Virus record (IMG/VR): IMGVR_UViG_2734482770_000007
Length of the DNA: 37,921 nucleotides
Strand: one strand, 5' to 3'
From: a virus
Lineage: Duplodnaviria; Heunggongvirae; Uroviricota; Caudoviricetes
Below are positions 2,833-11,295 of this stretch, piece by piece. The notes under the pieces are model-generated. The model did not search any database, was not told the DNA's origin, and saw only the letters and a program-made list of their open reading frames with translations. The translations under genes and the position numbers were made by a program. The stretch's first letter is position 1. Each line of letters starts with the position of its first letter.

Positions 2833-3429
2833 TTAATTCGAGACTATTGTACTTCTTATACAAGCAACCACTTCAATATCAGAAAATGCACATTCAAAGC
2901 TATTCTCTGCTGTTGTAATTTTAATCATTCCTTTAGGAAGCCTTGTGATTTTTCGAATGGAATAGGTTCCGTCGATATTGATTAACCAGTTTCCATCAAG
3001 TACTTCAGAAAATTTTTGATCACAAATGTATGTGACGAGTCCATCCTGAACAACAATTGGTGATGAAAGGTTTGCAGGAAGAAATGATGAATCGAAGACA
3101 TATGAACCGTCTTCAATCATTTTGCCTGCGGCAAGGCGAAACTTAACAAGCTCTTCTGTAGCTGCTGTCAGCGAGCTTTGCTTAAGGCCTTGTCCGGTAG
3201 TTAACCATTTGAGGGAGGTTCCTGTTTCAAGAGCACATTGGATTATCCAGTCAGCAGGAAATGTATCCCGCAAATACCTGTTCGCTAGTGTGCTTTTTGA
3301 TACTTCCAAGTGATCAGCTAAAGCCTGTCGTGTCGTAAAGCCATAGGCTTCGACTAATCGCTCAATCGCAGCCTTACCACCTTTATTGGGATTTATTTTG
3401 ATCTCACTTGGGTACTTTGATGTTGACAT
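2833..3429 (-). CDS. cI: CI-type immunity repressor (186 CI-like, two-domain)
   Basis: 198-aa ORF, same strand and directly upstream of int operon, divergent from apl/cII; size matches 186 CI (about 192 aa) not the small P2 C; N-terminal HTH-like region. Confidence 0.8.
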   Translation of the reverse strand: MSTSKYPSEIKINPNKGGKAAIERLVEAYGFTTRQALADHLEVSKSTLANRYLRDTFPADWIIQCALETGTSLKWLTTGQGLKQSSLTAATEELVKFRLAAGKMIEDGSYVFDSSFLPANLSSPIVVQDGLVTYICDQKFSEVLDGNWLINIDGTYSIRKITRLPKGMIKITTAENSFECAFSDIEVVACIRSTIVSN

Positions 3430-6433: not shown

Positions 6434-8844
6434 GTCATGCCGATATGAACAACTGCTGCGGCTTTAACGAGGCTGCCGCAGCATTCTCATGGAACAGCCC
6501 GAAAAAGGCCATTAACCCTTATCTGGACCCGGCGGAAGTTGCGCCGGTTTCTACGCTTTCAAACCTGATCACTCTGTACGCTGCCGATAACGAGCAGGAA
6601 CAGTTGCGCCGCGAGGCACTGAGTGATCAGGTCTGGGAGCGTTATTTCTTTAATGAATCACGTGATCCTGTCCAGCGCGAAATGGAGCAGGATAAGCTCA
6701 TTAGCCGGGCAAAGCTGGCGCATGAGCAGCAGCGTTTTAATTCAGACATGGTCATTCTGGCGGACGTCAACGCCCAGCCTTCCCATATCAGCAAGCCGCT
6801 GATGCAACGTATTGAATACTTCAGCAGCCTGGGCAGGCCAAAGGCTTATTCCCGCTATTTACGTGAGACGATTAAGCCATGTCTGGAACGACTGGAGCAT
6901 GTACGCGACAGTCAGCTATCTGCATCTTTTCGCTTTATGGCAAGCCATGAAGGGCTGGACGGCCTGCTGATCCTGCCTGAAATGAGTCAGGATCAGGTGA
7001 AACGCCTGTCCACCTTGGTAGCTGCGCATATGAGTATGTGCCTTGATGCAGCTTGTGGTGATTTGTATGCCACCGATGACGTTAAGCCAGAAGAAATCCG
7101 CAAGACATGGGAAAAGGTGGCAGCGGAAACCCTGCGTCTGGATGTCATCCCACCTGCGTTTGAGCAACTCCGTCGGAAAAGAAACCGCCGTAAACCCGTG
7201 CCGTATGAACTCATTCCGGGTTCGCTGGCGCGTATGTTGTGCGCCGACTGGTGGTATCGGAAATTATGGAAGATGCGTTGCGAATGGCGGGAAGAGCAGT
7301 TGCGCGCTGTTTGCCTGGTCAGCAAAAAAGCATCTCCTTATGTCAGCTATGAAGCCGTGATGCATAAACGTGAGCAGCGCCGTAAGTCGCTGGAGTTTTT
7401 CCGTTCTCATGAACTGGTGAACGAAGACGGCGACACGCTGGACATGGAGGATGTGGTAAACGCCAGCAGCAGCAACCCTGCGCATCGCCGCAATGAGATG
7501 ATGGCCTGTGTTAAAGGTCTGGAGCTTATCGCGGAAATGCGCGGTGACTGCGCCGTTTTCTACACTATCACCTGTCCGTCGCGTTTCCATTCCACGCTAA
7601 ATAACGGCAGACCAAACCCGACCTGGACAAACGCGACGGTAAGACAAAGCAGCGATTATCTGGTCGGCATGTTTGCTGCATTTCGTAAGGCGATGCACAA
7701 AGCCGGGTTGCGCTGGTATGGCGTGCGGGTGGCTGAGCCGCATCATGATGGCACAGTTCACTGGCACCTGTTGTGTTTCATGCGCAAAAAAGACCGCCGT
7801 GCCATCACTGCATTACTGCGTAAGTTTGCCATCCGTGAAGACCGCGAGGAGCTGGGCAATAACACTGGGCCGCGCTTTAAGTCTGAGTTGATTAACCCGC
7901 GCAAAGGAACGCCGACAAGCTACATCGCGAAATATATCAGTAAGAACATTGACGGTCGTGGTCTGGCTGGCGAGATCAGCAAGGAAACGGGTAAATCTCT
8001 GCGTGATAACGCTGAATACGTGAATGCCTGGGCGTCTCTGCATCGTGTTCAGCAATTCCGCTTCTTTGGTATTCCGGGGCGTCAGGCTTACCGTGAACTT
8101 CGCTTGCTGGCTGGTCAGGCGGCAAGGCAACAGGGTGACAAAAAAGCAGGTGCGCCGGTACTGGATAACCCGCGTCTTGATGCCATTCTGGCTGCTGCTG
8201 ATGCTGGTTGTTTTGCCACCTACATCATGAAGCAGGGCGGCGTACTGGTTCCCCGTAAATATCACCTCATCAGAACCGCTTATGAAATCAACGAAGAGCC
8301 GACCGCCTATGGCGATCACGGCATTCGTATTTATGGCATCTGGTCACCCATTGCAGAGGGCAAGATCTGCACTCATGCAGTGAAGTGGAAAATGGTTCGT
8401 AAAGCCGTTGACGTTCAGGAGGCGGCAGCCGACCAGGGCGCTTGCGCCCCTTGGACTCGTGGCAATAACTGTCCCCTTGCTGAAAATTTGTACCAACAAG
8501 GGAAAGACAAATCAGCTGATGGGGATACCAGAACGGATATCACCCGCATGGATGACAAGGAATTGCACGATTACCTGCACAGTATGAACAAAAAAGAGCG
8601 TCGGGAACTGGCTGCAAGGTTACGCCTGGTGAAACCGAAACGGCGTAGAGACTACAAACAGCGAATTACAGATCATCAGCGACAGCAGCTCGTCTATGAA
8701 CTGAAGTCCAGAGGATTTGATGGCAGCGAGAAAGAGGTCGATTTACTCCTTCGCGGCGGCAGCATTCCGTCAGGAGCAGGCCTGCGTATTTTCTATCGGA
8801 ACCAGCGTTTGCAGGAAGATGATAAGTGGCGGAACCTGTATTAA
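6430..8844 (+). CDS. A: Rolling-circle replication initiator (P2/186 gene A family)
   Basis: 804-aa ORF with metal-binding motif [11 protein letters not shown] (HUH-type) and Tyr-containing YIAKYISKN region; start overlaps dam stop (ATGA). Confidence 0.9.
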
Positions 8845-8938
8845 TTACGCGGGTTAACAATTCGTGCTCTTAATAATACCAGGTATATCAGGCTGATGAA
8901 CGTAAAAAAACGTTTTACATCAGTAAGATTATTATATA

Positions 8939-8954
8939 CTGTAAATATAAACAG
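8939..8954. promoter_or_regulatory. LexA (SOS) box CTGT-N8-ACAG
   Basis: TACTGTAAATATAAACAGTG read directly; close match to LexA consensus TACTGT(AT)4ACAGTA; 44 bp upstream of ATG 8998. Confidence 0.6.
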
Positions 8955-8997
8955 TGGTTATGCATACAGTATTGCTTGTGGTGTCATAGGAGGAAAG

Positions 8998-9186
8998 ATG
9001 CAGGACTATTTTTTGGAGTCTTTGAAGCTCCAGCGCATTGATTTTTTTCTTAAGCTTGTAGCGGCTAGTGAGTGTAGTGATGAAGAGAAGGGGCTGGCCC
9101 TGCAGTGGGTTTCTGAACTGACAGATGAACTCATGGCAAAAATCAGAACCCACGAATACAACCGCTCAATGGATGTCATCAGCTGA
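8998..9186 (+). CDS. Small SOS-controlled protein, possibly Tum antirepressor N-terminal module
   Basis: 62-aa ORF from ATG 8998 with AGGAGG Shine-Dalgarno; directly downstream of LexA box; position matches 186 tum. Confidence 0.45.
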   Translation: MQDYFLESLKLQRIDFFLKLVAASECSDEEKGLALQWVSELTDELMAKIRTHEYNRSMDVIS

Positions 9187-9196
9187 GGTGACTTTT

Positions 9197-9430
9197 ATGC
9201 GCATTGAAATAATGATCGATAAAGAGCAGAAGATTAGCCAGTCTACCCTGGACGCCCTTGAATCCGAGCTTTACCGCAATCTGCGCCCCCTGTATCCCAA
9301 AACGGTAATTCGCATTCGCAAAGGTAGCTCTAACGGTGTGGAACTGACCGGACTGCAACTGGACGAAGAAAGGAAGCAAGTGATGAAAATTATGCAGAAG
9401 GTGTGGGAAGACGACAGCTGGCTGCATTAA
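9197..9430 (+). CDS. DinI-like protein
   Basis: 77-aa product MRIEIMIDK...DALESEL...WEDDSWLH aligns by eye with E. coli DinI (MRIEVTIAK...DALAGEL...WESADDW); GAGGTG upstream of ATG 9197. Confidence 0.75.
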   Translation: MRIEIMIDKEQKISQSTLDALESELYRNLRPLYPKTVIRIRKGSSNGVELTGLQLDEERKQVMKIMQKVWEDDSWLH

Positions 9431-9460
9431 GAAACGTTGCCCCCAAGAGGATTCATTCTG

Positions 9461-9631
9461 ATGGGGGACTATTTTGGGCAACGAGTGAAACGAGGCGTTA
9501 GGTGGACGGCCATTTTGATAAGTGATCGTCCGCTTTTTGTTCTGAGTTCAAGCGATGGATTTAACACACTGGTTGAAGCAGAAGTATCTAAGTTCAATTT
9601 ATATTATTTGAAGGGCACTGGTCTGATGTAG
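9461..9631 (+). CDS. Hypothetical small protein in hotspot
   Basis: 56-aa ORF from ATG 9461 with AAGAGGA Shine-Dalgarno; track lists a longer version from 9437 (non-ATG start). Confidence 0.3.
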   Translation: MGDYFGQRVKRGVRWTAILISDRPLFVLSSSDGFNTLVEAEVSKFNLYYLKGTGLM

Positions 9632-9717
9632 TACGATTTTTGCCGGAGATGGCATGTTCTATATTGATCTCATCCATATAATGATTGGTATTATTAGCTT
9701 AGTTTAAAGAGGATTGA

Positions 9718-11295
9718 ATGGATATCAACTATGTTGTTTCAAAAATGGGGTTCGTAGATGATCTTATTAATGCAGGTTCATTTGATTCTGCCTATAAAAA
9801 TGTAAAGGATATTCTTAACGGTATCGATGAGATAAATACAATCAAAGAAAATAGAATAATTATATTATCTAATTTGGCCGGAAATCTTATTGATATCGGA
9901 AGTTTTAGTAATGTAAAAAATATAGCGGAGGAAGGCTTAAATATCTTTATAAACAATAAAAATGAATTTCTGACTATAATGAAAGAATCCTTATATTACT
10001 ATAACTTGGCAAATGGAATGAGCGCAGTTCTTGATTTTAATCCTAATGACAATGCAGATATTGATAGTTTCATTAAGCTGAATGATGTAAAAAATAATTA
10101 CTGGAAAGCGTTTAAACTTTCACAAGAAGATGGATGGGTGCCCCCTGATTTAATAGTTAATCTAGCTAATGTATTAAAAAAACAATATCGTATATCTGAA
10201 TCAATGGATTATTATGAACAAGCAATATCTATTGATAACTCAATTCCTCAGGCGTGGGTAAACAGATCTGAGGCATTAGAATTGCTTAATGAATTATCTA
10301 CAACATATACATATAAAATGATTAAAGAAGTTATTCGAGGTTATGAGTGTGCAATAAAGTCAGGGAAATGTTTTCCTTCATGGAAGGTTGCTCTTCAAAG
10401 AAAAATAAAGTACAACGAAAGTATATTGAGTGAATCATGTGTATATGGCATAGAGGATATAAGTACAGATGAAAGGCTCACGCAGGAGGAGTATGATACT
10501 TTATCAAACTACCAGAGGTTTTGTATAGATAATAATCTAATGTTGTCTGATCATTCGCTATATTGCAATTGTTATGCGTCATCTAAAGATAATATAACTA
10601 TTGCTACCACCGAGGAAGGTGTGTTTGGTGATTTTATAGTGCCAATGGAAATGGTGTTAAATAGACTTAAAGCTGAGTATTCCTTAGCACGAAAAATGTT
10701 TTTTGAATATAAGGTTGATAGTGAGTTTTTTGATGAGGATTCGGAGGTATGTTATTCTGAATTGTATAATGGAGAAATATTGTATGAAAATGTTGAGAAG
10801 TTAAGGGTTGCATTTAGAGCTTGCTTTGGTATCTTGGATAAAATAGCAGTTGCTCTGTGTCAATTATTTGATTTAAAACCAGATAGAGGACATATATACT
10901 TTCATAACTTCTGGCGGATTAGTGATGAAAAAAGAAAGCTTAAAATAAACAAAATAAATAATAAAGGATTGCTGGGTTTGTTTAGTATTGCTATGGATTT
11001 GAATGATAAAAATGGTGAGCTTGCTTTTTTTAAAGAATGGAGGAATGATTTAGAACATAAACTGTTAGTTATTCACGAGAAAGACATGTTAGTTGATTTA
11101 TATAATTCTTATGGGTTTTTTGATGAGGTGAGGTTTATTGAGAAAGAAAAGTTTGAGAAACAGCTCTTACAACTCATGAAAATTGTGAGATCAGCCGTTA
11201 TTCTTTTTGTGTTTACCATACGTATAGAGGGGAAAAAAAGTATTCCTAAAGATATGTTGACCATTAAAAATACCATCGAGAGAAAAGTATTGTAG
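9718..11295 (+). CDS. Cargo protein of unknown function; TPR-like N-terminal region, C-terminal HEPN-like Rx4H motif
   Basis: 525-aa ORF, strongly AT-rich by eye; AAGAGGA-like SD (AAAGAGGATTGAATG); helical repeat-like segment YYEQAISIDNSIPQAWVNRSEALELL; C-terminal EWRNDLEHK fits HEPN R-x4-H; followed by hairpin tcatcg-agc-cgatga plus T-run. Confidence 0.7.
   Translation: MDINYVVSKMGFVDDLINAGSFDSAYKNVKDILNGIDEINTIKENRIIILSNLAGNLIDIGSFSNVKNIAEEGLNIFINNKNEFLTIMKESLYYYNLANGMSAVLDFNPNDNADIDSFIKLNDVKNNYWKAFKLSQEDGWVPPDLIVNLANVLKKQYRISESMDYYEQAISIDNSIPQAWVNRSEALELLNELSTTYTYKMIKEVIRGYECAIKSGKCFPSWKVALQRKIKYNESILSESCVYGIEDISTDERLTQEEYDTLSNYQRFCIDNNLMLSDHSLYCNCYASSKDNITIATTEEGVFGDFIVPMEMVLNRLKAEYSLARKMFFEYKVDSEFFDEDSEVCYSELYNGEILYENVEKLRVAFRACFGILDKIAVALCQLFDLKPDRGHIYFHNFWRISDEKRKLKINKINNKGLLGLFSIAMDLNDKNGELAFFKEWRNDLEHKLLVIHEKDMLVDLYNSYGFFDEVRFIEKEKFEKQLLQLMKIVRSAVILFVFTIRIEGKKSIPKDMLTIKNTIERKVL

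Follow-up and report, generated by a model that had tools for sequence, protein, structure and literature searches.

The window analysed here, a 37,921-nucleotide stretch from IMG/VR record IMGVR_UViG_2734482770_000007 to whose whole length all coordinates refer, is on sequence comparison a Fels-2-like prophage of the P2 family with a 186-type, non-cleavable CI repressor. Directly behind its gpA-type replicase gene lie a LexA operator and two small open reading frames (ORFs), named ORF62 and ORF77 after the lengths of their products (Table 1). Together they very probably form the SOS operon of a Fels-2/186-type prophage in its split form, with a tumA-type gene followed by a tumB-type gene. The order gpA then TumA is common to the window, Fels-2, Escherichia coli HS, PSP3, 186 and metagenome contigs. 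The initial annotation had recognized a Tum/DinI-like induction module at the position occupied by tum in 186; the place after a gpA-like replicase and the Tum homology of both ORFs bear this out.

The start codon of ORF62 stands 4 nucleotides (nt) after a perfect AGGAGG. Its stop codon (TGA, 9184–9186) is followed by 10 nt and then by the ATG of ORF77, in the +1 frame; GAGGTGA (9185–9191), in the junction, is the Shine–Dalgarno sequence of this second gene. The two ORFs are therefore as first described, a 62-residue frame with its AGGAGG and, 10 bp on in another frame, a DinI-like frame of 77 residues (Pfam DinI, E 6.6e-23). Two details of the operator needed correction: the near-consensus LexA box is present, but starts at 8937 rather than at 8939 (the latter being the C of CTG), and it does lie upstream of ORF62, with its end 41 nt and not 44 from the ATG. 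Longer ORF versions of 96 and 101 residues begin upstream of the LexA box or within ORF62; unsupported by homologues, they were discarded.

Table 1. Features of the tumA–tumB locus and of the associated repressor and replicase genes
Feature	Coordinates	Strand	Basis
Putative SOS promoter, p95-like	8914..8942	+	Sequence reading, analogy with 186 p95
LexA operator (SOS box) TACTGTAAATATAAACAGTG	8937..8956	+	Unique in the window, conserved in relatives
Shine–Dalgarno AGGAGG of the 62-residue gene	8988..8993	+	Sequence reading; kept in HS and Fels-2
tumA-type gene (ORF62), 62 residues, homologous to the 186 Tum N-terminal domain, putative antirepressor	8998..9186	+	Translation, profile homology
Small hairpin GTCATC-AGCTGA-GGTGAC	9175..9192	+	Terminator-like scan
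tumB-type gene (ORF77), 77-residue DinI-family protein	9197..9430	+	Pfam DinI, PHROG 189
186-type CI immunity repressor, presumed target of the ORF62 protein	2833..3429	-	Homology to 186 CI
P2 gpA-type replicase gene, 804 residues	6430..8844		Directly before ORF62

The operator TACTGTAAATATAAACAGTG agrees with the E. coli LexA consensus TACTGTATATATATACAGTA at 17 of 20 positions, and both CTGT/ACAG arms are perfect. A site of consensus type occurs once in the 37.9 kb and in none of 100 dinucleotide shuffles; the looser pattern CTGT-N8-ACAG, sought window-wide, is likewise found at this box only. The box is identical in Fels-2 and in DuoHS, a prophage of E. coli HS. More widely, a TACTG-N10-CAGT box is found a short way before the start codon at every one of the 15 TumA-family loci examined (the window, HS, Fels-2, PSP3, 186, Yersinia 06.16-2, ESSI-2 and eight metagenome or genome contigs), over which TumA identity falls from 100% down to 36% and beyond. 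The distance from box to start is 15–41 nt in 14 of these loci, and at the remaining one (L009) the box abuts a start that is probably mis-called.

By analogy with p95 of 186, a putative promoter can be assigned to a −35 element TTTACA (8914–8919), a 17-bp spacer and a −10 element TACTGT (8937–8942) that coincides with the left arm of the LexA box. The corresponding elements of p95, as annotated, are TTCACA, 18 bp and TACTGT, with the −10 element made up of the first six nt of the LexA site. Judged by its operator sequence, ORF62 would be transcribed from a LexA-repressed promoter, LexA being predicted to bind the box. A degenerate second LexA-like site, CAGTGGTTATGCATACAGTA (8952–8971, + strand), overlaps the right arm of the main box. 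Its right half is good (ATACAGTA) and its left half is spoiled. HS and Fels-2 have kept the site, and its presence explains why the start lies ~21 nt farther from the box than at other TumA loci. Perhaps it is a remnant, perhaps a weak site that acts cooperatively.

The kinship of the first gene emerges at the level of sequence profiles. A first, shallow profile, made from close homologues only, scored 49% in hhalign against Tum N-termini. An HMMER search of 1.84 billion cluster-representative proteins then returned 66 hits at E ≤ 0.001, the most distant with 36% identity. The true family among them consists of small proteins; the longer hits are either upstream-extension miscalls or two low-complexity repeat proteins, which were discarded. 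An alignment of 36 diverse family members matched an independent alignment of 186-type Tum N-termini with an hhalign probability of 96.6% (E 5.8e-10), collinearly over residues 3–44 of both families; it took the diverse sequences gathered in the exhaustive search to make the match significant. The hidden Markov model of the ORF62 family also scores 35.4 bits on residues 5–48 of 186 Tum; a Yersinia phage protein that bears the name ‘tum protein’ reaches 37 bits. The shared pattern is roughly [LI]-[EQ]-R-[IV]-[DE]-x-[IVF]-x-[RK]-[LM]-x-A-x3-C-x3-[DE]-[KR]-x-[LIV]-A-[LI]-x-[WL]-[IVL]-[AS]-E-[LIM]. On this profile evidence, ORF62 belongs to the family of Tum N-terminal (antirepressor) modules, as a diverged member. 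Its product is modelled by AlphaFold2 as a two-helix hairpin (helices 2–23 and 28–61, pLDDT 87). A sequence-profile search of the PDB with ORF62 gave no match, a Foldseek search of the model against the PDB retrieved generic helical hairpins only (E > 0.8), and comparison with Pfam and PADLOC yielded no family, and with PHROGs only families of ‘unknown function’.

The second gene is a typical member of the DinI family. ORF77 covers positions 1–63 of the 63 in the Pfam DinI profile PF06183 (E 6.6e-23, 81.3 bits for a cut-off of 24.2) and matches PHROG 189, a family that takes in both DinI and Tum. It aligns with residues 1–77 of E. coli DinI (1GHH), including the C-terminal acidic W-E-D-D-S-W region, and is 78% identical to PSP3 TumB. 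With the C-terminal half of 186 Tum (residues 71–145) it shares 41% identity (E 3e-24), so that the DinI-related nature of this part of Tum, stated in the initial annotation, is upheld. The alignment with 186 Tum recommended there as a check thus succeeded outright for ORF77 (41%, E 3e-24), and for ORF62 failed in BLASTP and succeeded at the profile level. Kinship with Tum had been made to depend on similarity to either ORF, and both are similar. E. coli DinI is described, in references cited in PMC3121763, as binding RecA filaments and modulating their co-protease activity. By analogy, the most likely function of the ORF77 protein is to bind RecA filaments and to adjust how strong or how long-lasting the SOS signal is; for induction it is probably dispensable. 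The TumB proteins of the window and PSP3 share 78% identity, while the TumA proteins of the two cannot be aligned; such a contrast would be expected if TumB acts on a conserved host protein (RecA) and TumA on a phage protein.

The initial annotation left two options for the layout, a genuine two-gene arrangement or a frameshifted tum. Strong purifying selection acts on both ORFs, with a ratio of non-synonymous to synonymous substitution (dN/dS) of about 0.07. In comparisons with SopEPhi, Klebsiella ST13phi12.1, ST437phi4.1 and Yersinia MLG42 (dS of about 0.8–1.9), dN/dS is 0.07–0.10 for ORF62 and 0.05–0.07 for the DinI ORF, the full range for the latter being 0.05–0.11. Depending on the relative, the second ORF lies in frame 0, +1 or +2 with respect to the first, the tumA stop is TGA, TAA or TAG, and the spacer to dinI measures 10–13 nt. 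Since frames and stops vary in this way, a recent frameshift and any single recoding mechanism are excluded. In each of the nine Fels-2-like loci compared, the DinI ORF opens with an ATG behind a purine-rich, Shine–Dalgarno-like stretch, and contigs with a TumA just 52% identical still hold the exact pair of 62 and 77 residues. In P2-like prophages farther removed, and likewise in Cronobacter phage ESSI-2, a LexA-boxed TumA gene follows gpA alone, without a DinI gene. A C-terminal DinI extension is absent from all 66 ORF62-family hits (E ≤ 0.001) among the 1.84 billion representatives. Even the 186-type N-terminal module stands alone in 42 of 120 database clusters (63–78 residues, e.g. ending ...FSAKPIEN) and continues into DinI in 13. 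Taken at the sequence level, the 186 fusion is one arrangement of several and not an ancestral norm lost at this locus.

That the two ORFs are the halves of a 186-like tum broken by a frameshift or a sequencing error, leaving the induction gene dead or crippled, has practically no chance of being right. The idea draws on the single 146-residue polypeptide in which 186 carries both domains and on the mere 10 nt and +1 shift that part the ORFs here, but 67 phage records have the pair of 62 and 77 residues too, as do 1125 of the 5426 complete E. coli genomes. Both ORFs evolve at a dN/dS of about 0.07, relatives vary in frame (0, +1, +2) and in stop codons, and those of the Fels-2 type have a Shine–Dalgarno-like stretch before the second ATG. 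Moreover, the 186 linker (about residues 45–70) has left no remnant, the exhaustive protein search contains no fused member, and DuoHS is inducible with the identical layout. The frameshift alternative is rejected on these comparative data, and resequencing of 9180–9200, as once advised, is needless. It is also extremely unlikely that programmed frameshifting or stop read-through still produces a TumA–DinI fusion functionally equivalent to 186 Tum. A short gap and a small hairpin spanning the stop codon would suit such recoding, but the event needed would differ by lineage (+1, +2 or read-through of TAG), and no conserved slippery sequence is apparent in the compared junctions (no formal search was made). 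In addition, the nine Fels-2-like loci all provide the DinI ORF with its Shine–Dalgarno-like stretch and ATG, and many TumA homologues have no DinI gene downstream. Whereas 186 Tum joins the antirepressor and DinI modules in one polypeptide, here a stop codon, a 10-nt gap, a change of frame and a separate Shine–Dalgarno sequence stand between them. On the comparative sequence data, the split is a genuine two-gene arrangement and not a frameshifted tum, in keeping with the tumA/tumB layout of PSP3 and with published genetics.

At the junction, the hairpin pairs the last tumA codons with the Shine–Dalgarno sequence of the DinI gene and has the tumA stop codon in its loop. The structure forms in the sequences of the window, HS and Fels-2; comparable pairing exists in the ST13 and ST437 relatives, though not in all relatives. 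Possibly it couples translation of DinI to that of tumA; if the coupling is real, tum deletions could therefore be polar on dinI. A further hairpin, after the DinI stop (about 9435–9483), was considered as an operon terminator. It folds no better than shuffled sequences (z −1.4); it lies just past 9428, where homology with Klebsiella and Salmonella relatives (Fels-2 included) ends, and spans 9440, where homology with E. coli phages ends. Because of this z value of only −1.4 and of its position at or past the homology ends, it is not claimed as a terminator. An Rfam scan of 8700–9800 gave no credible RNA family.

The repressor gene explains why such an operon would be called for. Along its full length, CI of the window shares 32% identity with 186 CI (E 3e-34), and it has the Pfam domains Phage_CI_repr and Phage_CI_C, with no S24 peptidase domain. 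RecA-stimulated self-cleavage is therefore not expected of this repressor, and an antirepressor is needed. In 186, Tum is reported to sequester CI after LexA derepression of p95 and to keep it from its operators, which SOS induction requires (PMC7708051; also PMC3121763). In a lysogen of the prophage studied here, host LexA bound to the box, which overlaps the p95-like −10 element, would likewise keep the operon off. Upon DNA damage, activated RecA would promote self-cleavage of LexA, and a bicistronic tumA–tumB mRNA would be made; these steps are proposed from sequence, conservation and analogy. The 62-residue helical-hairpin protein would then bind the 186-type CI and block its binding to operators, so that the early lytic promoter would be derepressed and excision and lytic growth would follow. 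Behind this central step stand homology and the genetic data for a near-identical prophage, with contact between TumA and CI presumed for the window. The second cistron would supply a DinI-family protein acting on RecA filaments and modulating the SOS signal, a role suggested by its family and one that the Gifsy data suggest to be dispensable.

The genetics come from DuoHS. According to Ortiz de Ora et al. 2025 (PMC12055606), mitomycin C no longer brings about lysis or virion formation by this E. coli HS prophage once tum (ECHS_RS04495) is deleted, and the same holds with a lexA(Ind-) allele. We located ECHS_RS04495 as a 189-nt gene, named ‘hypothetical protein’, immediately upstream of a DinI-like gene. 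Its product is 98% identical to ORF62, and the upstream region, LexA box included, is identical.

Several observations weigh against the reading of ORF62 as the antirepressor of a LexA-controlled operon and against the role given to its partner. BLASTP finds no alignment of ORF62 with 186 Tum and none with PSP3 TumA; the link to the latter is weak when drawn directly and runs through the 186 N-terminal family. A generic sigma-70 scan did not call the p95-like promoter, whose −10 element matches at only three of six positions. Were the two genes translationally coupled, a polar effect of the DuoHS tum deletion on the DinI gene would be conceivable. Compatibility of TumA with CI in the window is extrapolated, since this CI is only 55% identical to that of DuoHS. 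As to the DinI-like protein, non-polar dinI deletions in the Gifsy prophages did not measurably change induction (PMC3121763). One could hence suppose that the 62-residue ORF is a leader or an unrelated small protein and that induction proceeds via the DinI-like protein or another SOS factor, a view compatible with the lack of a Pfam, PADLOC or PDB match for ORF62, with its RefSeq name ‘hypothetical protein’ and with a possible polarity of the DuoHS deletion. We regard this as very unlikely in view of the profile homology of ORF62 to the Tum N-terminal region, the strong purifying selection on it and the stand-alone, LexA-boxed homologues in prophages devoid of DinI. Furthermore, antirepressor activity is reported for the upstream gene of PSP3 (a personal communication from Bunny et al. 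2002, relayed in a passage of PMC3121763), and the same Gifsy dinI deletions, with no induction phenotype, speak against a DinI-driven switch.

If ORF62 encodes the antirepressor, its distribution relative to CI types may hint at the surface that it recognizes. The CI proteins of the window and DuoHS are 55% identical overall, with 75% in the N-terminal domain and 42% in the C-terminal one. Across Fels-2-like phages with 98–100% identical TumA, CI is 43–55% identical to that of the window; the N-terminal helix-turn-helix domains share 70–84% and the C-terminal oligomerization domains 30–38%. With the diverged TumA subtypes (ESSI-2, Yersinia, PSP3 and 186), identity of the N-terminal domain drops to 47–63%, and that of the C-terminal domain stays flat at 27–38%. 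TumA subtype thus tracks the N-terminal and not the C-terminal domain of CI, which suggests that TumA recognizes the conserved N-terminal domain and possibly acts across immunity types. Alternatively, the pattern could stem from recent recombination of the gpA–tum–dinI block, with the signal of the C-terminal domain saturated. Gifsy antirepressors are able to act in trans on other prophages (PMC3121763), and E. coli genomes contain up to three copies of the module. A broad-specificity, trans-acting antirepressor that docks on the conserved DNA-binding domain of CI and co-induces several heteroimmune P2-like prophages in a polylysogen is a tentative idea, and we think it rather unlikely.

About one in five complete E. 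coli genomes (1125 of 5426) carries the module, and its antirepressor gene is poorly annotated there. PGAP names it ‘hypothetical protein’ in 25 of 25 E. coli genomes sampled from 1129 matching records, some UniRef and phage records misname its homologues ‘levan regulatory (domain) protein’, and gene callers often extend ORF62 upstream to 84–109 residues, over its own LexA box. With no Pfam family and with wrong or hypothetical names, automated pipelines therefore see only the DinI gene and miss the induction switch. The practical value of the present analysis lies in this annotation gap, and the idea of action across immunity types is secondary. For this prophage, the module predicts SOS induction by an antirepressor and not by repressor cleavage. 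Inducibility by the SOS response bears on mobilization of the prophage, and of any satellite or cargo genes, under DNA-damaging antibiotics.

Two large genes of the window look like cargo. Between the integrase gene and cI, a 558-residue gene (1136–2812, − strand) matches the PD-Lambda-1 defence protein (PADLOC, E 2.4e-120) and has DUF4041 and T5orf172/MUG113 domains, which are nuclease-like; from its sequence, it looks like defence cargo in the int–cI slot of a P2-like prophage. Directly after the DinI gene, a 525-residue ORF (9718–11295, + strand) has a G + C content of 28–32%, against about 50% in the backbone, and carries a TPR region and an LA2681-like HEPN domain (Pfam, E 1.8e-38); it found no match among PHROGs and only a weak TPR match in PADLOC. 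The same slot holds other cargo in relatives, including GAPS4, a restriction–modification system and DUF6575. The 525-residue ORF is a candidate abortive-infection or defence gene, and transcription from the SOS promoter might read through into it, as it does into orf97 in 186.

Compared with known systems, the locus combines familiar parts. ORF77 resembles E. coli DinI (1GHH) in its full-length alignment and its match to PF06183, and differs from it in being phage-encoded and in its predicted co-transcription with an antirepressor gene, its effect on RecA being proposed by family analogy. The gfoA/gftA operons of Gifsy-1/2/3 (PMC3121763) are similarly LexA-repressed and encode a small antirepressor and a DinI homologue, and the repressors are again not cleaved; in contrast to the present locus, dinI comes first there, and the phages are lambdoid with repressors of another family. 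With 186 the locus shares its place directly after gpA, a LexA box that doubles as −10 element, the N-terminal module at the profile level, the DinI module (41%) and a 186-type CI. The 186 record describes a 146-residue Tum with nested C-terminal products that ‘modulate SOS induction’. Unlike the separate cistrons found here, 186 tum thus encodes one polypeptide with a linker of about 25 residues and internal starts that give DinI-only products. Further differences from 186 are an N-terminal module too diverged for BLAST, a distance from LexA box to start of 41 nt here versus 18 nt there, and another cargo gene in place of orf97 of the p95–tum–orf97 operon.

The closest parallels are phages in which tum is likewise split, as passages of Lemire et al. 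2011 (PMC3121763), citing Bunny et al. 2002, describe for Fels-2 and PSP3. PSP3 has two adjacent cistrons behind one LexA box, for a TumA of ~60 residues and a DinI-like protein of 77 residues; its GenBank record annotates tumA as ‘similar to 5' end 186 tum; UV induction of prophage’ and tumB as ‘similar to dinI and 3' end of 186 tum’. Unlike ORF62, PSP3 TumA is of another subtype (hhalign 12.6% with the ORF62 family versus 81.5% with the 186 N-terminal family), and the gap between its tumA and tumB is 3 nt versus 10 nt here. DuoHS is nearer still, with a 62-residue protein 98% identical to ORF62, no difference in the LexA box or the promoter region, and the same DinI gene following; it differs in its CI, just 55% identical, and in the cargo genes after dinI. 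Over the module, DNA identity is 96–98% with many Klebsiella and E. coli Peduoviridae and 97.6% with Salmonella phage Fels-2, whose record refers to PSP3 TumB. The system is therefore one already described: the split tum was in print in 2002 (as passages of PMC3121763 have it) and in 2011, its genetics were confirmed in 2025 in a near-identical E. coli prophage, and nothing about it is new in kind. In Fels-2, STM2728 and STM2726.1 display the identical architecture, with proteins 98% and 100% identical to those of ORF62 and ORF77.

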